Origin: a virus | Virus record (IMG/VR): IMGVR_UViG_3300045988_007371 | Location: 1 to 5,935 of that record | Strand: one strand, 5' to 3' | DNA: 5,935 nt | Shown: positions 1 to 5,935 of the stretch, piece after piece | How the letters are laid out: each line of letters begins with the position of its first letter | Position numbering within the stretch: the first letter of the stretch is position 1 | Made by a program: the position numbers and the translations under genes | Notes under the pieces: generated by a model | Databases searched by the model: none | What the model was told of the DNA's origin: nothing | The model's input: only the letters and a program-made list of their open reading frames with translations

Positions 1-99
1 AAGAAGCTTTGCAAACGAAATTGATTTAGAACTAATCAGAAGGGATTATGAAAATGGGACGACATCGTAAGAAAATGAGCGGCGCAAAAGATCGCCGAA
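1..99. repeat. Terminal redundancy, copy 1 (circular-genome assembly overlap)
   Basis: By direct comparison, bases 1-99 (aagaagctttgcaaacgaaattg...aaagatcgccgaa) are identical to 5837-5935. The repeat cuts through coding sequence: it holds the 3' end of the 75-aa ORF and the 5' part of the J-like ORF. That is what a circular genome written past its own start looks like. Implied unit length is 5,836 nt. Confidence 0.97.
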
Positions 100-176
100 T
101 GTTCAACGTAACTGCACGAAAGACGAAAACTATCAACCTTAGCCAGAAGCCCATGCGCGGTGGTATCCGGCTGTAA
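48..176 (+). CDS. Small basic DNA-binding/packaging protein (phiX174 J-like; gokushovirus VP8-like), 42 aa
   Basis: Hand translation gives MKMGRHRKKMSGAKDRRMFNVTARKTKTINLSQKPMRGGIRL, with stop TAA at 174-176. It is very rich in Arg/Lys and ends in PMRGGIRL, the C-terminal signature I recognise from gokushovirus small DNA-binding proteins. An alternative start is the in-frame ATG at 54, giving 40 aa. The purine-rich gaaggga at 38-44 could serve either start. The ORF is below the size cutoff of the supplied track. A truncated second copy begins at 5884 inside the terminal repeat. Confidence 0.8.
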   Translation: MKMGRHRKKMSGAKDRRMFNVTARKTKTINLSQKPMRGGIRL

Positions 177-192
177 AAGAAAGGAAAAGACA

Positions 193-432
193 ATGGAACA
201 TCTGTATTATGGACTGTGGGACAACGTAGCAAAGTGCTATGCGTGGGTAGGCGAAAGCAAGAATAACGCAACCTTTGCGCGTATGTGCAATGTTATGGAA
301 AAGGACGAAAAGACTTTTGTCGGACAGAGTCCGGAAGACTACATCGGATACCGGCTGGCAACATTCAACGATGAGACCGGCACCTTCACCAACGACAAAG
401 AGAAAGCATGGGAGGGCAAGCCGCATGAATAA
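193..432 (+). CDS. Conserved microvirus nonstructural protein (gokushovirus VP5/ORF5-like), 79 aa
   Basis: This is the track ORF 160..432. I prefer the ATG at 193 (MEHLYYGLWDNVAKCYAW...), which has AAGGA at 181-185 seven nt upstream. Position 160 is a GTG lying inside the J-like gene. The pattern Y..WD......W....N...A.R ... SPEDYIGYRLATFNDETGTF resembles the PEDY/F..(Y/L)..G.FDD.TG motif of the small nonstructural protein found in many gokushoviruses. The function call comes from memory of that family, not from a search. Confidence 0.75.
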   Translation: MEHLYYGLWDNVAKCYAWVGESKNNATFARMCNVMEKDEKTFVGQSPEDYIGYRLATFNDETGTFTNDKEKAWEGKPHE

Positions 433-823
433 ACGATACGAAGAAGGGCGAGAGCCCTTCTTTTCTGAAAGCGGAGAAAAATTCAGAAAGCAATACGTCT
501 GGACAAAAGACGAAAAAGGGCAAGAAGTGCTGCAAGAAACAGAACCGATCGACATTCAGCAAGAAATCGAAAGCTATGCAGACGAATGCGACATCAAAAA
601 CATTGTCCGAAAAGCAAGTTTTGACCCGCAGTTCCTTGAAAGCTTATCCGAAGGAGCAATGACGGGGGAAGAAGTGGACATCACCGAATTTCCGCAAAAC
701 ATTCATGAGTATCACCGCATGATTGCGACCGCACAGGCAAACGCAATGAAGCTTGAAGAGCTACAAAAAATGGAAGCGGAAAAAGCAAAAGCAGAACCTG
801 AAGCAAAGGAGGAAGAAAAGTGA
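425..823 (+). CDS. Internal scaffolding protein (VP3-like), 132 aa
   Basis: Same frame as track ORF 275..823, but position 275 is a TTG with no RBS. The ATG at 425 has GGAGG at 411-415 nine nt upstream and overlaps the upstream stop (ATGAATAA, 425-432). The product MNKRYEEGREPFF...ESYADECDIKNIVRKASFDPQFLESL...ITEFPQNIHEYHRMIATAQANAMKLEE... is acidic and helical, about 130 aa, and sits immediately upstream of VP1. All of this fits gokushovirus VP3. Its stop TGA (821-823) overlaps the VP1 GTG start. Confidence 0.8.
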   Translation: MNKRYEEGREPFFSESGEKFRKQYVWTKDEKGQEVLQETEPIDIQQEIESYADECDIKNIVRKASFDPQFLESLSEGAMTGEEVDITEFPQNIHEYHRMIATAQANAMKLEELQKMEAEKAKAEPEAKEEEK

Positions 824-2511
824 ATCGAAACAATGAACGACACTTCAACCAAATCCCAGAAATGAAAGCAAGTCGAACACGATTCAACCGAGACCAGACG
901 ATTTTAACAACATTTGATTCCGGGAAATTGATTCCGTTTTACGTTGACGAAGTATTGCCGGGCGACACATTTAGAGTAAACACGACAGCAATCATCAGAA
1001 TGACGACACCGAAGTTTCCAGTGATGGATGATGCATTCATCGACTTCTATTACTTCTATTGTCCAAATCGCATCCTATGGAAAAACTTTAAACAATTCAT
1101 GGGAGAAGTAGAAAATAAACCCTGGATGCCAGTAAAAACGTACAAAGTCCCAGAAATAAAAATCGAAGGAAGTGAAACCTCAGCAAAACCACTCGAAAAA
1201 AGTATCTTAGATTACATGGGCGTTCCAACGAAAGTAAAAAGACCCTTCAAAATTAACGCATTGCCAATCAGAGCATATGTAATGATCTGGAACGAATTTT
1301 TTAGAGACGAAAATGTAGGCAATGCGGCAGTATGGTCAGACGAAGACAGTGATGTAACATACGCACAAAGCTACAATGAAAACTCAACCAACGCGGACAA
1401 AATGCAAAAAGAGTTGAATGAAGCAATAACCGGCGGGCTCTGTCTACCGGTAAACAAGTTCCACGACTACTTCTCAAGCTGTCTCCCCTATGCACAACGT
1501 GGGCCGGAAGTGACGCTGCCAATGCAAGGCAATGCAAGAATATCCGGATACACAAATGATAAATTTAACGAAAAAGCACCACTATATGCAAACAGCTTTT
1601 TTGACGGAAGCACAAACCCGGGCAACATCAAAGACAAAATGTATGCAATCGCAGCAGATGGAGGCACAGGATCAGCATACTTAGCCATTGGAGACGGAAC
1701 AGGCAGTGACCATAAAGTAGTATACCTAGGCGCAGACCTTGGAAGCGTAACCGCAGCAACCATCAACGACTTGCGAAAAGCCGTAGCAGTGCAACAGTAC
1801 TACGAGGCGCTGGCAAGAGGCGGCAGCCGTTACCGCGAGCAGGTACAAGCATTGTGGGATGTAATTATCTCAGATAAAACTGTACAGATCCCGGAATATC
1901 TTGGCGGCGGCAGATACCGCGTCAATGTTAACCAGATCGTACAGACAAGCGGACAGCAGACCGACAAAGACACGCCTATTGGTGAAACCGGTGCAATGTC
2001 AGTAACACCCATCAATGAAAGCAGTTTTACGAAATCTTTCGAGGAACACGGATTCGTAATCGGTGTATGTTGTGTACGACACAATCACAGTTACCAGCAA
2101 GGGCTTGAACGTTTCTGGAGTCGAACGGACAGACTGGACTATTACGTACCTCAGTTCGCAAATCTTGGCGAACAGCCTGTCAAAAAGAAAGAAATCATGC
2201 TAACCGGCACAGCAACAGACGAAGAAACTTTCGGTTACCAGGAAGCATGGGCAGACTACAGAATGAAGCCGAATCGAGTATCCGGCCTCATGAGAAGCAA
2301 CGCAATCGGAACGCTGGACTTCTGGCACTATGCCGACAACTATTCAACCGTACCAACACTATCGCAGGAGTGGATGGCAGAAGGAAAGAAAGAAATCGCA
2401 AGAACATTGATCGTGCAGGATGAGCCGCAGTTCTTCGGCGCAATCCGAGTAGCAAACAAAACAACAAGACGTATGCCGTTGTACAGCGTACCGGGCTTGT
2501 ACAAACTGTAA
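820..2511 (+). CDS. Major capsid protein (VP1, phiX174 F-like), 563 aa
   Basis: GTG start at 820, preceded by AAGGAGG (806-812) with a 7-nt spacer. The N-terminal region RNNERHFNQIPEMKASRTRFNRDQTILTTFDSGKLIPFYVDEVLPGDTFRVNTTAIIRMTTPKFPVMDDAFIDFYYFYCPNRILW matches the conserved Microviridae capsid N-terminus (..HF..vP...i.RS.F......T.F..G.LiP....EvlPGDtf...). The size is typical of gokushovirus VP1. Confidence 0.97.
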   Translation: MNRNNERHFNQIPEMKASRTRFNRDQTILTTFDSGKLIPFYVDEVLPGDTFRVNTTAIIRMTTPKFPVMDDAFIDFYYFYCPNRILWKNFKQFMGEVENKPWMPVKTYKVPEIKIEGSETSAKPLEKSILDYMGVPTKVKRPFKINALPIRAYVMIWNEFFRDENVGNAAVWSDEDSDVTYAQSYNENSTNADKMQKELNEAITGGLCLPVNKFHDYFSSCLPYAQRGPEVTLPMQGNARISGYTNDKFNEKAPLYANSFFDGSTNPGNIKDKMYAIAADGGTGSAYLAIGDGTGSDHKVVYLGADLGSVTAATINDLRKAVAVQQYYEALARGGSRYREQVQALWDVIISDKTVQIPEYLGGGRYRVNVNQIVQTSGQQTDKDTPIGETGAMSVTPINESSFTKSFEEHGFVIGVCCVRHNHSYQQGLERFWSRTDRLDYYVPQFANLGEQPVKKKEIMLTGTATDEETFGYQEAWADYRMKPNRVSGLMRSNAIGTLDFWHYADNYSTVPTLSQEWMAEGKKEIARTLIVQDEPQFFGAIRVANKTTRRMPLYSVPGLYKL

Positions 2512-2521
2512 GAAAGGAGAA

Positions 2522-2547
2522 AGCCCGGAGAAATCCGGGCTATTTTT
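2522..2547 (+). terminator. Rho-independent terminator after the capsid gene
   Basis: An 8-bp GC-rich stem, AGCCCGGA (2522-2529) paired with TCCGGGCT (2534-2541), closes a GAAA tetraloop (2530-2533). It is followed by A-TTTTT (2542-2547). It lies 11 nt after the VP1 stop. Confidence 0.75.
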
Positions 2548-2550
2548 AAA

Positions 2551-3414
2551 ATGAGCGCATTATCAGGACTCTTAACAGGGCTAAACGTAGCCGGAAACAT
2601 TGCAAGCACAATTGGAACATTTGCAAACGCTGGTAAACAAGTCGCCGGAATATTTGGCGGATGGGGTCAGGAAGGCAACAGCCAAAGCCAAGGCGGCAGT
2701 GTAAGCCAAGGCGGCGGTCATTCAGAAAGCGGAAGCTATTCGGGCACAAACGTGCAACAGGTAAACGACTGGCTAAAACAAGCATATGCATACCAAGGGC
2801 AAGAAGCAGCCATGCAAGGTAAATACAACAGTCAGAGTATGCTTAAACAAATGGGGTACAACACCTTACAAGCAATCATGCAAGGCATATATAACCACAT
2901 TGAAAACGGCGTAGCAATGAACTACAACAGTGCAGAAGCACTAGCAAACCGTGAATGGCAAGAACACATGTCAAGCACAGCATACCAGCGTGCAGTTGAA
3001 GACATGAAAAAAGCGGGACTTAATCCAATCTTAGCTTTTTCAAACGGCGGAGCAAGCACACCGGGGGGAAGCGCAGGAACAATTAGCGGTGCAAGTATGG
3101 GACTAGCAAGCAGCAGCGCACTAGGAGTAAGCAGAAGCGGCGGATTCGTACCGAACGCATACGAAAGCAACAGCTGGTCGAAAAGCGACTGGTACAACGC
3201 CGCAGAAAGCTGGCAACAGATGCTCAGTAATACACACATGACGCCCTATGGACTGACAAAAGCATTAACAAAAATTGCAAACGGCACAGACGATGCAATC
3301 AAAGATGCAGTAAAGCCAACAACAAAACAACCAAACAAGAAAAACTACATTAAACCGCAAGACAAAACGGGCAAATACGGAGAAAAAAGGGAACCGGGTG
3401 ATTATTTAAAATGA
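2551..3414 (+). CDS. Minor capsid / DNA pilot protein (VP2, phiX174 H-like), 287 aa
   Basis: It has a Gly/Ala-rich hydrophobic N-terminus (MSALSGLLTGLNVAGNIASTIGTFANAG), then a G/S/Q low-complexity region. It also carries NREWQEHMSSTAYQRAVEDMKKAGLNPILAF, which I recognise as the conserved core of gokushovirus VP2 (..sNTAyQR.v.DlkaAGLNP.La). Position after VP1 and before the rep gene fits. Confidence 0.92.
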   Translation: MSALSGLLTGLNVAGNIASTIGTFANAGKQVAGIFGGWGQEGNSQSQGGSVSQGGGHSESGSYSGTNVQQVNDWLKQAYAYQGQEAAMQGKYNSQSMLKQMGYNTLQAIMQGIYNHIENGVAMNYNSAEALANREWQEHMSSTAYQRAVEDMKKAGLNPILAFSNGGASTPGGSAGTISGASMGLASSSALGVSRSGGFVPNAYESNSWSKSDWYNAAESWQQMLSNTHMTPYGLTKALTKIANGTDDAIKDAVKPTTKQPNKKNYIKPQDKTGKYGEKREPGDYLK

Positions 3415-4430
3415 GTTGCTACAAGCCATTAATAAGGCTGTACAACCCGAACGATAAAGACATTAGCGGGAGGGTGTATTCACTCTCCCGCATTTCTCAG
3501 TTAGCGGGAAAACAGCTCAAATATGAAGATCTGATGTACAGGAAAGATATAATGTTGATACCATGCGGACAATGTATCGGATGTAGAATCAGACAAAGAG
3601 AGGACTGGACAACACGAATAGAATTAGAAGCACGAGATTATCCAAAAGAACAAGTCTGGTTTATTACGCTAACCTATGATGACGATCATGTACCGGGCAT
3701 GATAATAAACACAGGCGAAATCATGCGAAAAGTGCAATACGTCTGGAAGCCGGGAGAGAAGCGCCCTGAAAGCGTCCAAACGTTACTATATCCTGACATT
3801 CAAAAATTCTTAAAACGTCTCAGAAAGGCTTATAGGGGCAAATTACGCTATTTTGTAGCGGGAGAATACGGAGAACAGACAGCAAGACCGCACTATCACA
3901 TGATTCTATACGGGTGGCAACCAACAGACCTTGAACACCTGTACAAGATACAACACAACGGATACTTTACAAGTAAATGGCTAGAAAACCTATGGGGCAT
4001 GGGTCAAATACAGATAGCACAAGCAGTGCCAGAAACCTATAGATATGTTGCAGGGTACGTCACAAAAAAAATGTATGAGATAGACGGCCAAAAAGCAAAC
4101 GCATACTACGAACTAGGGCAAACAAAACCATTCGCATGCATGAGCCTAAAGCCGGGTTTAGGCGAACACTATTACCAAGAGCACAAAGAAGAGATCTGGC
4201 GGCAAGGATATATCCAATGCACAAACGGCAAACACGCACAAATTCCGCGCTATTATGAAAAAATGATGGAAGCAGAAAACCCACAAAGATTATGGAGAAT
4301 TAAACAGAACAGACAAGCAGCAGCAATTGCAGAAAACCGGCTAAAGTACGAAAATGCAGACTTTGCAGAACAATGTAAAACAAAAGAGAGAGTAATAAAG
4401 AAGCAGATGAAGAAGAGAGGGACACTTTAA
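3411..4430 (+). CDS. Replication initiation protein (VP4, phiX174 A-like HUH endonuclease), 339 aa
   Basis: The ATG overlaps the VP2 stop (ATGA, 3411-3414). Rolling-circle Rep motifs are present. These are a Cys cluster PCGQCIGCR (aa 51-59), motif I FITLTY (aa 84-89), HUH motif II PHYHMILYG (HYH at nt 3891-3899) and motif III YVAGYVTKK (nt 4044-4070). Motif III has two tyrosines spaced YxxxY, as in the phiX174 A protein. Confidence 0.96.
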   Translation: MSCYKPLIRLYNPNDKDISGRVYSLSRISQLAGKQLKYEDLMYRKDIMLIPCGQCIGCRIRQREDWTTRIELEARDYPKEQVWFITLTYDDDHVPGMIINTGEIMRKVQYVWKPGEKRPESVQTLLYPDIQKFLKRLRKAYRGKLRYFVAGEYGEQTARPHYHMILYGWQPTDLEHLYKIQHNGYFTSKWLENLWGMGQIQIAQAVPETYRYVAGYVTKKMYEIDGQKANAYYELGQTKPFACMSLKPGLGEHYYQEHKEEIWRQGYIQCTNGKHAQIPRYYEKMMEAENPQRLWRIKQNRQAAAIAENRLKYENADFAEQCKTKERVIKKQMKKRGTL

Positions 4431-4448
4431 CAGTGTCATAGTGTCACC

Positions 4449-4482
4449 TAGCCCAGTGCCTATCAAGTAAGGTACTGGGCTA
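4449..4482 (+). other. Stem-loop immediately downstream of rep (weak terminator or ssDNA structural/origin element)
   Basis: TAGCCCAGTgCC (4449-4460) pairs with GGtACTGGGCTA (4471-4482). This gives 12 positions with one G:T mismatch and a 10-nt loop, TATCAAGTAA. No clean T-tract follows (ttgtcgtc), so it is not a textbook terminator. It is preceded by the tandem AGTGTCA AGTGTCA (4432-4438 and 4440-4446) and a small GACACT/AGTGTC hairpin spanning the rep stop codon. Confidence 0.5.
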
Positions 4483-4537
4483 TTGTCGTCTAAGGACGCC
4501 ATGTATCGAACTATTCAGTCTATCAAATAATCCAATT

Positions 4538-4582
4538 CGCACGTGCGCACACGCGCGATAGCGCGCACGCGCGCACGCGCGA
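4538..4582. repeat. GC-rich alternating purine-pyrimidine (CG/CA) tract with nested palindromes and short tandem repeats
   Basis: The sequence is cgcacgtgcgcacacgcgcg-ata-gcgcgcacgcgcgcacgcgcg. It contains perfect Y/R alternation over 4538-4557 (20 nt) and 4561-4581 (21 nt). It also holds the 10-bp palindrome CGCACGTGCG (4538-4547), the tandem GCGCGCAC GCGCGCAC (4561-4576), and the imperfect direct repeat GCGCAC(AC)GCGCGATA (4545-4560 and 4571-4584). It stands out sharply against the A-rich remainder of the genome. Confidence 0.9.
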
Positions 4583-4600
4583 TATAATATTAACTTGTTG

Positions 4601-4621
4601 TAGGAGTAGTAGTAGTAGTAG
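4601..4621. repeat. (TAG)n trinucleotide microsatellite
   Basis: The sequence tag gag tag tag tag tag tag has five perfect TAG units (4607-4621), preceded by TAG and GAG. It reads as stop codons in one + frame. It also explains the spurious YYYYY run in the minus-strand track ORF 4480..4674. Confidence 0.95.
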
Positions 4622-4794
4622 TGGAAAAGTTGAAAAGTACTAAAATTTAACGTTAAAGCGTAAATAAAAAGCAAAAAACGCCGTTGAAAGTTTTGTTGAA
4701 AAATTGTTGAATTGTTGAAAGTCCGTCAAAATGACGAAAATCATTGTGCAACATTTTGTGGAAAACCTGTTGAAAGTGTTGAAAGTGTTGAAAA
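4621..4794 (+). repeat. Array of direct GTTGAAA-type heptamer repeats (iteron-like), ending in three tandem 9-mers
   Basis: Perfect GTTGAAA occurs at 4629, 4683, 4695, 4714, 4769, 4778 and 4787. Variants are GTGGAAA at 4621 and 4758, GTTGAAT at 4706, GTTAAAG at 4652 and GTCAAAA at 4725. All share one orientation. The last three form cTGTTGAAA gTGTTGAAA gTGTTGAAA (4767-4793). With equal base frequencies a given 7-mer is expected about 0.36 times in 5.8 kb. Confidence 0.9.
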
Positions 4795-5153
4795 CGCGCA
4801 CAGCGCTTACAATGAATGGATTAGCCGAGCTCCGCATACGCTCCGCACGGCAAGGCGCTAAAGCGCTTTCGAAACAAAGGAGCAAAACCGGGTTGCAAGA
4901 GAAGGTTACAATTTTATTACAAAACAGCAAAATCATTGAAAAACCTATTGACAAGGAGTATAATAAAGTCAGAGGAAGGAAGGTGTTCAGAATGACGCTG
5001 AAAAGCTACAAAATTGAAATGACAAACAAAGAAACAGGCAAAAGAGAAATTCGCCACACGCTGGCAGAAAGCAAAAAACTTGCAAAGTGTCTCATCTGGA
5101 CAAAAAAAGACATCATAAGCCAATGGAAGATAAACAAAATAGAAGAGGGTTAA
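4731..5153 (+). CDS. Hypothetical protein, maximal ORF model (140 aa); N-terminal 87 codons uncertain
   Basis: Track ORF. For: the frame stays open for about 91 codons upstream of 4992 in an A-rich strand, where I estimate roughly 6% of random codons would be stops. That is unlikely by chance. Against: there is no RBS before the ATG at 4731. The 5' end is built from the GTTGAAA repeats (encoding LKVLKVLK), and the consensus promoter lies inside it. An intermediate start is TTG at 4893, with AAGGAG (4877-4882) 10 nt upstream. This is an alternative model of the same frame as the 4992 entry. Confidence 0.4.
   Translation: MTKIIVQHFVENLLKVLKVLKTRTALTMNGLAELRIRSARQGAKALSKQRSKTGLQEKVTILLQNSKIIEKPIDKEYNKVRGRKVFRMTLKSYKIEMTNKETGKREIRHTLAESKKLAKCLIWTKKDIISQWKINKIEEG
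4829..4874. promoter_or_regulatory. Operator-like phased direct repeat and overlapping palindromes upstream of the accessory-cassette promoter
   Basis: GCTCCGCA occurs at 4829-4836 and 4840-4847, an 11-nt period. An 18-bp near-palindrome AAGGCGCT-AA-AGCGCTTT (4852-4869) contains the perfect palindrome AAAGCGCTTT (4860-4869) and overlaps TTTCGAAA (4867-4874). TTACAA is also repeated at 4906 and 4917, again 11 nt apart, just upstream of the -35 box. The regulatory role is inferred. Confidence 0.4.
4936..4964 (+). promoter_or_regulatory. Sigma70-type promoter for the accessory cassette
   Basis: The -35 box is TTGAAA (4936-4941). A spacer of exactly 17 nt (4942-4958) separates it from a consensus -10 TATAAT (4959-4964). 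The predicted start near 4971 lies just upstream of the GGAAGGAAGGTG RBS and the ATG at 4992. Confidence 0.65.
4992..5153 (+). CDS. Hypothetical small protein, promoter-proximal start model (53 aa)
   Basis: The ATG at 4992 has GGAAGGAAGGTG ending 6 nt upstream and sits about 20 nt downstream of the predicted transcription start. The product is MTLKSYKIEMTNKETGKREIRHTLAESKKLAKCLIWTKKDIISQWKINKIEEG. It is lysine-rich, has no hydrophobic segment and matches no family I recognise. The stop at 5151-5153 is 5 nt before the M15 start. Confidence 0.5.
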   Translation: MTLKSYKIEMTNKETGKREIRHTLAESKKLAKCLIWTKKDIISQWKINKIEEG

Positions 5154-5158
5154 CAAAC

Positions 5159-5551
5159 ATGGAAATCAAAGCATATGTAGTAGACGAGCAAGGAAACGAA
5201 CAAATCACAGACCACTTCAAAGTGAAAGAGTTTGCTTGCAAAGACGGGTCACCAATCGTATTCGTTGACGAATATCTAGCAGTCATTCTAGAGATCGCAA
5301 GAAAAAAAATCAATAAGCCGATTGTCATCACGAGCGGATACCGCACAGTAAGCCACAACAAAAAAGTAGGCGGAGCAAAATATAGCTATCACATGCGCGG
5401 CATGGCGGCAGACATCAGAGCGAACGGAGTGACGCCAAAAGAACTTGCAAAAGTACTAAACGACATCGTACCAAACAGCGGCGGAATCATCGTATATAAC
5501 AATTGGGTACATTTCGATACAAGAAATGAAAAATACAGAAAGGGGGTATAA
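5159..5551 (+). CDS. Peptidase M15 family (M15A/Peptidase_M15_3, Zn D-Ala-D-Ala carboxypeptidase-like) cell-wall hydrolase, 130 aa
   Basis: Same frame as track ORF 5087..5551. I prefer the ATG at 5159 (MEIKAYVV...), which has GAGGG (5145-5149) 9 nt upstream and lies just after the upstream stop. The sequence FKVKEFACKDGS...KPIVITSGYRTVSHNKKVGGAKYSYHMRGMAADI...VHFDTR matches the M15 signature SGYR...N..vGG...S.H..G.A.D....vH.D. The Zn ligands are H78-x6-D85 and H118 (H78 codon at 5390-5392). There is no signal peptide or TM segment. Confidence 0.93.
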   Translation: MEIKAYVVDEQGNEQITDHFKVKEFACKDGSPIVFVDEYLAVILEIARKKINKPIVITSGYRTVSHNKKVGGAKYSYHMRGMAADIRANGVTPKELAKVLNDIVPNSGGIIVYNNWVHFDTRNEKYRKGV

Positions 5552-5552
5552 A

Positions 5553-5675
5553 ATGGCGCTGATTTCCATTAAAGACGTCAAGCAAGCAATCCGCATTATG
5601 ATGCAGATTCTCGAAAAACTTGACGAGATCTATCACGCGCTGCACGACAGCATCAACGAAAACGAAAAGGAGTAA
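5553..5675 (+). CDS. Hypothetical small helical protein, 40 aa
   Basis: Hand translation gives MALISIKDVKQAIRIMMQILEKLDEIYHALHDSINENEKE, with stop TAA at 5673-5675. A GGGGG run (5542-5546) lies 6 nt upstream of the ATG. The ORF exactly fills the gap between the M15 gene and the next ORF, starting 1 nt after the M15 stop. It is too short for the ORF track and has no recognisable family. Confidence 0.55.
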   Translation: MALISIKDVKQAIRIMMQILEKLDEIYHALHDSINENEKE

Positions 5676-5678
5676 ACC

Positions 5679-5906
5679 ATGATGCACAAGACATGGAACG
5701 TAAGAGACCAGACCACAGAAGCACTAGAAGAGCTACTCATACGAAAATTAAAAGAAATTGATGACAATTACAAAATGCTTAAAAAAGTGTCAAATATCGA
5801 AGACGCTAAAAAGCTAGTAGATGAAATGTGGCGAATAAGAAGCTTTGCAAACGAAATTGATTTAGAACTAATCAGAAGGGATTATGAAAATGGGACGACA
5901 TCGTAA
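5679..5906 (+). CDS. Hypothetical coiled-coil-like protein, 75 aa (crosses the circular junction)
   Basis: Track ORF. AAGGAG (5667-5672) lies 6 nt upstream of the ATG at 5679. The product MMHKTWNVRDQTTEALEELLIRKLKEIDDNYKMLKKVSNIEDAKKLVDEMWRIRSFANEIDLELIRRDYENGTTS is charged and helical and matches no family I recognise. Its last 23 nt overlap the J-like gene in another frame (window 48-70, equivalent to 5884-5906). Confidence 0.7.
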   Translation: MMHKTWNVRDQTTEALEELLIRKLKEIDDNYKMLKKVSNIEDAKKLVDEMWRIRSFANEIDLELIRRDYENGTTS

Positions 5907-5935
5907 GAAAATGAGCGGCGCAAAAGATCGCCGAA
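5837..5935. repeat. Terminal redundancy, copy 2 (circular-genome assembly overlap)
   Basis: Identical to bases 1-99. It contains the 3' end of the 75-aa ORF and a truncated second copy of the J-like ORF, starting at 5884/5890. Confidence 0.97.

Follow-up and report, generated by a model that had tools for sequence, protein, structure and literature searches.

The gokushovirus genome in IMG/VR record IMGVR_UViG_3300045988_007371 carries a dense array of short direct repeats in the noncoding region between its replication gene (VP4/Rep) and an endolysin cassette. The window analysed here (the whole stretch of 5,935 nucleotides (nt), positions 1 to 5,935 of that record) corresponds to a circular genome of 5,836 nt plus 99 nt of terminal redundancy. 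Judged by motif content and layout, the repeats appear to form part of a copy of the DnaA-dependent portion of an Oscillospiraceae (former Ruminococcaceae) chromosome origin. The parts of this module and the elements that bound it are as follows.

4583..4795, + strand: whole oriC-like module, a discrete invertible unit of 213 bp with an AT-rich end, DnaA-trios and ten DnaA-type boxes
4538..4582, no strand: GC-rich alternating purine/pyrimidine palindrome (CGCA/CGCG)n of ~44 nt, the module's left boundary, a strong hairpin in single-stranded DNA (ssDNA)
4582..4600, + strand: AT-rich segment ATATAATATTAACTTGTTG, 84% A+T, presumed unwinding element distal to the trios
4601..4621, + strand: DnaA-trio run TAG GAG TAG TAG TAG TAG TAG, seven in-frame NAG triplets, 3'-GAT-5' away from the boxes
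4620..4636, + strand: proximal box pair with an 8-bp period, AGTGGAAAA (4620-4628) and AGTTGAAAA (4628-4636)
4637..4681, no strand: spacer of ~45 nt, a variable hairpin/cruciform (ATTTAACG/CGTAAAT here)
4682..4721, + strand: box cluster 2, spacings 12, 11 and 8, CGTTGAAAG (4682), TGTTGAAAA (4694), TGTTGAATT (4705) and TGTTGAAAG (4713)
4722..4756, no strand: spacer with GTCAAAATGAC and TTGTGCAACA, conserved across deep clades
4757..4794, + strand: box cluster 3, spacings 11, 9 and 9, TGTGGAAAA (4757), TGTTGAAAG (4768), TGTTGAAAG (4777) and TGTTGAAAA (4786)
4795..4806, no strand: CGCGCACAGCGC, the module's right boundary, which repeats CGCGCAC of the left palindrome

The heptamer GTTGAAA occurs seven times (4629, 4683, 4695, 4714, 4769, 4778 and 4787), always on the + strand, and is absent from both strands of the window outside 4629-4793. 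An earlier sequence-only reading of this DNA had proposed about twelve same-orientation copies where fewer than one would be expected in the genome. The array and its enrichment are real, although the mean in 200 dinucleotide-preserving shuffles is 1.29 (maximum 5). The seven perfect copies are joined by three one-off copies in register (GTGGAAA at 4621 and 4758, GTTGAAT at 4706), whereas two other segments that had been counted as one-off copies, CGTTAAAG and GTCAAAA, differ from the heptamer at two positions and are not conserved as boxes. Elsewhere in the window, one-mismatch copies are at chance level (33 versus 24.2 expected); the outside variants previously pointed out are present as GTTGAAT at 1413 and GTTGAAG at 2995.

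The true repeating unit is the 9-mer (T/A/C)GT(T/G)GAAA(A/G), of which ten boxes lie within 175 bp in groups of 2 + 4 + 4 (4620-4636, 4682-4721 and 4757-4794). The spacings of 12, 11, 8, 9 and 9 nt given by the sequence-only reading are correct. Its perfect triple repeat at the end of the array is in fact CTGTTGAAA-GTGTTGAAA-GTGTTGAAA, or 2.9 copies of TGTTGAAAG, in which just the last two units are GTGTTGAAA. Of the extent it assigned (4621-4794), the right end holds; the left end moves outwards, because the feature begins at 4582/4583 with the AT-rich segment and the (TAG)n run, and it ends at 4794/4795.

Every GTTGAAA box holds TTGAAA, which is also the -35 hexamer of a promoter at 4936, and the array had been suggested to act as a set of decoy -35 boxes that titrate or recruit an RNA polymerase sigma factor. 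A -10 partner at 16-18 bp occurs only once, however, in a weak pairing at 4715-4744 that matches at 9 of 12 positions, and the whole module also occurs inverted. Moreover, the conserved unit reaches 5' to TGT, and its T/G variation falls inside the hexamer (TGGAAA), so the hexamer is not the conserved entity. We therefore give this idea a near-negligible probability.

The remaining parts of the module differ in how strictly they are maintained. In an alignment of relatives, TAACTTGTTGTAG and the TAG-triplet run 5' of the array are nearly invariant; TAACTTGTTG (4591-4600), within the AT-rich segment, is invariant. Tandem Repeats Finder scores the trio run as 7.7 copies of a 3-nt unit. The boxes are conserved and the linkers (0-3 nt) are variable. 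The spacer at 4637-4681 varies in sequence and keeps its palindromic character: the stem is a weak 7 bp here and a perfect 12-17 bp in many relatives. In other clades, the TTGTGCAACA spacer makes a TGCACAAA...TTTGTGCA palindrome. Similarly, the GC palindrome at 4538-4582 is kept in most relatives as a feature rather than as an exact sequence, and could form Z-DNA or a cruciform in double-stranded replicative form (RF) DNA.

Correspondence with bacterial unwinding elements and oriC

The basal unwinding system (BUS) of bacterial origins consists of tandem DnaA boxes, a GC cluster, DnaA-trios (3'-GAT-5') and an AT-rich duplex unwinding element (DUE) (Richardson 2016/2019, Pelliciari 2021; PMC6669920, PMC8287927). 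Its definition calls for one or two DnaA boxes with at most two mismatches to the species' box, or four for the weaker of a pair. The boxes AGTGGAAAA and AGTTGAAAA in this window fall within these limits, and so do TGTGGAAAA (which fits TTWTNCACA) and GTTGAAAA in relatives; both of the latter have identical counterparts among the boxes of Oscillospiraceae dnaA-dnaN regions. The definition also calls for at least three trios (NAN) whose strand and side are set by the orientation of the boxes. Here, TAG GAG followed by five TAG triplets lies 5' of the boxes on the TGTGGA... strand, with the same polarity as in B. subtilis, E. coli and the Oscillospiraceae host entries. The better-conserved box, which in bacteria is usually the distal one, should lie at most 16 bp from the trios (modal values 10-13) across an interval that includes a GC cluster of ~4 bp. 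The distal box of the phage pair is 12-13 bp from the trios, and 106 of 108 parsed unique relatives have exactly 4 nt between trio and box (GGGC, GCAC, GCAA, AGGC and others). In the place of the DUE of host BUS units lies a presumed unwinding element, an AT-rich segment that is edged by the GC palindrome and is only ~19 nt long, against ~30 nt for host DUEs. The location departs from the bacterial definition, which places a BUS at the chromosome origin beside dnaA/dnaN, whereas this module resides between VP4 and the endolysin cassette of a microvirus.

The order of elements can be compared directly with bacterial examples. Host BUS units read AT-rich - (TAG)3-5 - GGGN - TGTTGAAAC - TGTTGAAAAC; one example is tatatgtt-(TAG)5-GGGG-TGTTGAAAC-TGTTGAAAAC, followed by a gap of ~50 nt and then by boxes at 9- and 11-bp spacings. 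A gap of 45-55 nt beyond the BUS box pair is seen in host oriCs as it is in the phage. The phage + strand reads ATATAATATTAACTTGTTG - TAG GAG (TAG)5 - (A)GTGGAAAA - GTTGAAAA, with the element order and 8-bp box period of a BUS. For B. subtilis boxes 7 and 6, the published arrangement is 3'-AATAGGTGT TTAGGTGT CCGG GATGATAAT...-5' (PMC8287927 Table S1), which on the trio strand becomes 5'-(TAG...)n-GGCC-TGTGGATT-TGTGGATAA-3'. Relatives of this phage carry 4-5 TAG/TAA trios, and in most of them the proximal box is TGTGGAAA (reverse complement TTTTCCACA). Identical BUS cores are shared between phage and host over 27 nt (TAGTAGTAGTAGTAGGGGCTGTTGAAA, phage contig L296 versus host locus L059) and over 22 nt (phage contig L328 versus Ruminococcus locus L049). 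The combined BUS motif has a single occurrence in the window and none in 300 shuffles.

A motif search of related noncoding regions and bacterial genomes, which the sequence-only reading had put forward as a check, found the array to be conserved in relatives and the motif to fill bacterial oriC. For the bacterial part, one genome per species (185,579 species) was scanned for three TGTTGAAA cores with gaps of at most 30 nt, which returned at least 120 loci. Among the 120 matches listed, ~28 are labelled as Oscillospiraceae, Ruminococcus, Anaerofilum or other Clostridia. In at least 16 of the listed loci the array lies precisely in the dnaA-dnaN intergenic region, and these loci are mostly from the same groups; dnaA and dnaN were confirmed by Pfam in all six loci tested. 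The unit TGT(T/G)GAAA(A/G) is thus the repeat that fills the dnaA-dnaN intergenic oriC of Oscillospiraceae/Ruminococcus, with 18 boxes between the two genes in L077 and 24 in L049. Host and phage agree in the T:G ratio at the variable position (87:13 in host oriC versus 83:17 in phage) and in their commonest spacings (9 and 11 bp). Host loci with TGTTGAAAA as the main oriC box include L015, L042, L049, L059, L077, L079, L100, L102 and L134, among others.

These boxes can be related to the known DnaA box. TGTGGAAAA is the reverse complement of TTTTCCACA and fits the relaxed DnaA-box consensus TTWTNCACA, and TGTTGAAAA is one base off this fitting box. The predicted BUS boxes of Ruminococcus albus 7 are 3'-AAAAGTTGT-5', which is TGTTGAAAA (PMC8287927 Table S1). 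All 11 DnaA proteins from hosts in which the motif was found have RDHST(I/V) in the DNA-reading helix, versus RDHTTV in E. coli and B. subtilis. This difference fits a shifted DnaA-box preference, and the sequences suggest that the Oscillospiraceae/Ruminococcus box dialect is lineage-specific. The host DnaAs have also lost the proline of LPxIG and carry Tyr where E. coli has His439. The list of DnaA contact residues reportedly comes from Fujikawa et al. 2003, and a literature search on the role of E. coli DnaA Thr435 gave nothing useful.

The bacterial matches are not concealed phages, in that tblastn with VP1 and VP4 against the 120 matches listed found no hidden microvirus. Recent capture of the module from a host oriC was also considered and rejected, because blastn of the module against the same matches shows only box-level matches of 20-40 nt. 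Since the GTTGAAA motif matches a Ruminococcus-type oriC site and its unwinding layout, the phage probably recruits host DnaA.

A different host regulator could in principle read these boxes. TGTTGAA is one mismatch from the Spo0A (0A) box TGTCGAA, and many Oscillospiraceae sporulate, such that Spo0A of a sporulating host might bind the array and silence or trap the phage genome. In B. subtilis oriC, 0A boxes overlap DnaA boxes, and phage phi29 uses 0A boxes, providing a precedent for phage arrays that attract a host master regulator also acting at oriC. In phi29 the box is TGTCGAA, whereas the variable position in the gokushovirus box is T or G and never C, and the boxes here are coupled to trios. 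In addition, trio-adjacent boxes in host oriC must serve DnaA, and canonical DnaA boxes replace the phage boxes at aligned positions. We consider a Spo0A array very improbable.

Conservation and inversion among relatives

In GenBank, 53 microvirus records from the gut of humans, pigs and monkeys match the noncoding region, and all 14 GenBank relatives examined carry the module downstream of VP4, with 4-8 perfect copies on one strand. Altogether, dozens of gokushovirus genomes in GenBank and IMG/VR carry the module, and the BUS-like pattern occurs in 90 viral contigs, ~87 of which are of microvirus size. Among close IMG/VR relatives with enough flanking sequence, 64 of 65 carry the module (58 forward and 6 inverted). 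The one without it, L163, was evaluated as a natural module-less genome and set aside: it is an 8.8-kb contig with a close VP4 in which homology stops at window position 4529 and gives way to unrelated AT-rich sequence, and it is probably a chimera.

The boxes persist while the phage proteins diverge. They are unchanged in GenBank relatives at 49-56% VP4 identity and in an IMG/VR clade at 39-47% VP4 and 42-46% VP1 identity, and the noncoding DNA is 84% identical where the VP4 protein is only 49% identical. This pattern indicates that the binding partner is not phage-specific. Aligned box positions switch among TGTTGAAAA, TGTGGAAAA and the canonical TGTGGATAA; for example, the second box of cluster 2 aligns with canonical TGTGGATAA in L006 and L012.

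These observations bear on the proposal that the repeats are true iterons organized by a phage protein. The protein could be VP4/Rep, the 40-aa basic ORF8-like protein or the conserved 40-aa cassette protein (5553-5675), which would bind the repeats as in iteron plasmids, CRESS-DNA viruses or the pMV158 bind locus. The repeats share an orientation, lie about one helical turn apart and adjoin the Rep gene, and the cassette protein is encoded in 111 of 116 array-bearing genomes. However, the identical motif, spacings and trio context recur in bacterial oriC, and the motif does not co-vary with Rep (VP4 down to 39-49% identity). The conserved unit is 8-9 bp rather than the typical 17-22 bp, and no DNA-binding domain was found in the small cassette proteins with Pfam or PHROGs. 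Phage-bound iterons are therefore quite unlikely, although the array may still depend on the widespread 40-aa cassette protein, for which no sign of DNA binding was seen. The sequence-only reading had likened the array to sites for a replication initiator or a partition-type protein. The first comparison survives as an array of initiator sites about one helical turn apart, but the evidence favours host DnaA over VP4 or a partition protein.

In seven contigs that represent six genomes (L136, L138, L161, L167, L183, L205 and L304; L307 duplicates the IMG/VR contig L167), exactly the segment 4583-4795 is inverted in place with both flanks unchanged, which corresponds to ~5% of genomes. The GC palindrome at 4538-4582 stays forward in these genomes, the right-flank alignments begin at 4792-4794 and are also forward, and the ends of the inversion are bounded by short CGCGCAC-type repeats. 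The carriers are otherwise close relatives (VP4 at least 92% identical) plus one distant, deep-branching genome. Because inverted and forward copies are only 76-79% identical, the inverted forms represent lineages rather than assembly artefacts. The inversion implies that the module acts on double-stranded RF DNA, whichever strand is packaged, and argues strongly against strand-specific readings such as an RNA element, a complementary-strand origin or trios acting on virion ssDNA.

An element of the virion single strand would be such a case, whether it served as a complementary-strand origin, as a site of primosome assembly, or as an RNA with GUUGAAA repeats that is structured or acts as a protein sponge. 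All copies in this genome are on the + strand, and the noncoding region as ssDNA folds better than shuffles (z = -4.2). This folding signal comes from the flanking hairpins, though, with the array itself essentially unstructured, and Rfam gave no match even at E = 1. Inversion relative to the genes would abolish any strand-specific function, leaving this account, too, with very little probability.

Inversion also counts against a candidate nick site. TAACTTG^TTG (4591-4600) resembles the phiX174 sequence CAACTTG^A and was considered as the site cleaved by VP4. AACTTG is not rare in the window (6 versus 3.6 expected), and because it changes strand in inverted genomes, TAACTTGTTG is unlikely to be the VP4 nick site.

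Another possibility is that DnaA acts at the array as a transcription factor, repressing or activating the cassette promoter (4936-4964) or VP4 read-through in step with the host replication state. The array does lie between a hairpin that may terminate VP4 transcription (4449-4482) and the TTGAAA-17-TATAAT promoter, and DnaA regulates transcription at known box clusters (PMC3245932). Even so, the last box is ~140 nt upstream of the -35 element, inversion, which is tolerated, changes the position of the clusters with respect to the promoter, and neither the trios nor the AT-rich end has a role in transcriptional control. We assign this mode of regulation a low probability, comparable to that of phage-bound iterons.

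Canonical boxes were sought in other phages. A scan of viral contigs for three canonical boxes detected a single genuine microvirus, the distant GC-rich L447 (VP1 33-41% identical), with three perfect TTATCCACA boxes at an 11-bp period, which raises the possibility that DnaA recruitment is wider and that each phage uses the box dialect of its host. In L447 the boxes form TTATCCACAGG x3 at 2459-2489, which is intergenic and follows an AT-rich stretch, with no trios. The canonical-box BUS pattern TAGTAGTAG-N0-6-TGTGGATAA gave only chance matches in small viral contigs.

Possible roles in phage replication

We think it probable that host DnaA binds the ten boxes, opens the adjacent DNA, and starts or assists replication of the phage RF. 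What is observed is that the motif is identical to that of host oriC, that geometry and polarity are those of a BUS, and that the module is deeply conserved and independent of orientation; from these we infer the binding of DnaA, the opening of the duplex and the use of the opened DNA. In the proposed sequence of events, phage ssDNA would first be converted to RF, after which host DnaA-ATP would occupy the ten same-orientation 9-bp boxes TGT(T/G)GAAA(A/G) in their 2 + 4 + 4 arrangement. The box pair at 4620-4636 would then guide a DnaA oligomer onto the DnaA-trios (TAG)n at 4601-4621, and the AT-rich segment at 4582-4600 would melt, as in a bacterial BUS. The opened DNA would be used for phage replication, most likely through loading of the host helicase and primosome on RF. 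Helicase loading might permit host-driven, Rep-independent theta-type replication or maintenance of RF; alternatively, rolling-circle synthesis driven by VP4 might draw its helicase from this site. If the origin is self-contained, this would explain why trios, 4-nt gap and AT-rich end are conserved and why inversion is tolerated.

Several points weigh against a DnaA-dependent origin. TGTTGAAAA is identified as an Oscillospiraceae DnaA box by position and layout only, and it differs from TTATCCACA at two positions, including the C at position 6. This C is generally held to be important for recognition by DnaA. TGTTGAAAA is also one base from the Spo0A box. In this window, TAGT stands in place of the 4-nt GC cluster and the proximal box begins with A; the AT-rich segment is ~19 nt versus ~30 nt in hosts; and inverted boxes, a few of which occur in host oriCs, are absent from the phage module. 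The similarity to host oriC is at the motif level, with blastn showing nothing past the boxes, and Oscillospiraceae as the phage host is itself a prediction from the box match. Furthermore, oriC-type initiation normally takes place only once per cell cycle, which is a poor fit to a lytic burst. Finally, a multicopy DnaA-box cluster in B. subtilis had little effect (PMC3245932).

The main rival is that the array is a decoy. Hundreds of RF copies, each with ten boxes, could sequester DnaA-ATP and thereby halt or retime host initiation with no origin activity in the phage. Every argument for DnaA boxes applies equally to this proposal, titration is indifferent to orientation and fits the inversions, and titration of the datA type is established (PMC3245932). 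Sites of the datA and DnaA-box-cluster type are recognized by at least four to five DnaA boxes outside oriC, a number that the ten boxes in 175 bp here exceed. In contrast, the trios, the exact 4-nt gap and the AT-rich end are needless for titration, yet they are kept across clades with ~40% protein identity. In addition, the multicopy DnaA-box-cluster plasmid in B. subtilis bound DnaA but left over-initiation uncorrected (PMC3245932). A pure decoy is consequently unlikely, though it is the most credible of the alternatives to a DnaA-dependent origin.

Comparison with characterized systems shows what such an origin would share with each. The module has the element order, polarity, tandem 8-9-bp box pair, 4-nt gap and at least four TAG trios of a bacterial BUS, followed by a presumed AT-rich unwinding end, and its box sequence is identical to the Oscillospiraceae oriC box. 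It differs from a bacterial BUS in belonging to an ssDNA phage of 5.8 kb with an HUH rolling-circle Rep of its own, in being an invertible 213-bp cassette with a shorter AT-rich end, a TAGT gap here and no inverted boxes, and in being known from sequence alone. In the origins of plasmids and phages such as pSC101, P1, F, RK2 and R6K, the element's Rep binds iterons, with one to four DnaA boxes in a helper role. Like the phage, these are mobile elements with host DnaA at the origin and direct repeats about one helical turn apart. Unlike them, the phage repeats are themselves DnaA-type boxes with 9-bp rather than 17-22-bp units, and they appear to belong to a complete BUS. E. coli datA and the DnaA-box clusters of B. 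subtilis (PMC3245932) also have dense DnaA-type boxes outside oriC, with the phage version becoming multicopy in infection; those clusters lack DnaA-trios and an unwinding element, whereas the phage module has trios and a presumed unwinding element. The phiX174 origin, a 30-nt gpA recognition and nick site (CAACTTG^ATATTAATAAC), likewise comes from the Microviridae and shares AACTTG with invariant TAACTTGTTG, but it is without repeats and host-initiator sites.

The Microviridae serve as the textbook example of rolling-circle replication driven by Rep with no need for a host initiator, and a conserved DnaA-box/trio unit implies a link to host initiation that could serve replication, persistence or host takeover. 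Full-text literature searches found no paper that ties Microviridae or gokushoviruses to DnaA boxes or trios. More tentatively, and with less than even probability, a large clade of gut gokushoviruses may carry a second, host-initiator-driven origin by which RF is replicated or kept like an oriC minichromosome, independent of the rolling-circle Rep. If so, this origin might allow RF to be amplified early or the phage to persist in Oscillospiraceae in a plasmid-like, non-integrated carrier state, and the host clade of a phage could be read from its DnaA-box dialect. For gut phages without a cultured host, the TGTTGAAAA dialect together with the RDHST DnaAs points to Oscillospiraceae/Ruminococcaceae. 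A putative non-canonical DnaA-type box of Oscillospiraceae is documented along the way.

Genome context and neighbouring elements

An exact repeat of 99 nt at both ends of the window (1-99 = 5837-5935) identifies it as a circularly permuted complete genome, with all genes on the + strand. Its other features are listed below.

54-176, + strand: ORF8-like basic protein
193-432, + strand: VP5
425-823, + strand: VP3 scaffold
820-2511, + strand: VP1 capsid (Phage_F, E = 1e-132)
2551-3414, + strand: VP2
3411-4430, + strand: VP4/Rep
4431-4991: noncoding region of 560 nt that contains the array
4936-4964: near-consensus promoter TTGAAA-17-TATAAT ahead of the endolysin cassette
4992-5906, + strand: cassette encoding a 53-aa protein, an M15 endolysin, a 40-aa protein and a 75-aa protein

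Searches of Pfam and PHROGs gave no family for the 53-, 40- and 75-aa cassette proteins. The 40-aa protein is predicted to be helical, starts with MALISIKDVKQAIRIMMQILEKLDEIYHALHD and is encoded directly upstream of the ORF8-like basic protein; the 75-aa open reading frame (ORF; 5679-5906) runs into the start of the ORF8-like gene. Two mechanical ORFs, 4731-5153 and 4712-4861, traverse the array and are annotated as hypothetical proteins in some GenBank relatives. They are probably not genes, because the promoter is crossed and the frames are broken by module inversion.

A 13-bp hairpin at 4449-4482 lies directly 3' of the VP4 stop codon, with a conserved loop CTATCAAGTAAGG and compensatory stem changes among relatives, and its orientation is constant in genomes with an inverted module. 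The loop core TATCAAG is found again in deep clades and as CTATCAAATAA at 4520 (4520-4530). This hairpin may act in termination, hold the VP4 nick site, or do both. Upstream of the cassette promoter is a direct repeat, TTACAAT-TTTA-TTACAAA (4908-4925), that several relatives also keep; for the endolysin cassette it could serve as an operator or as an UP-like element.

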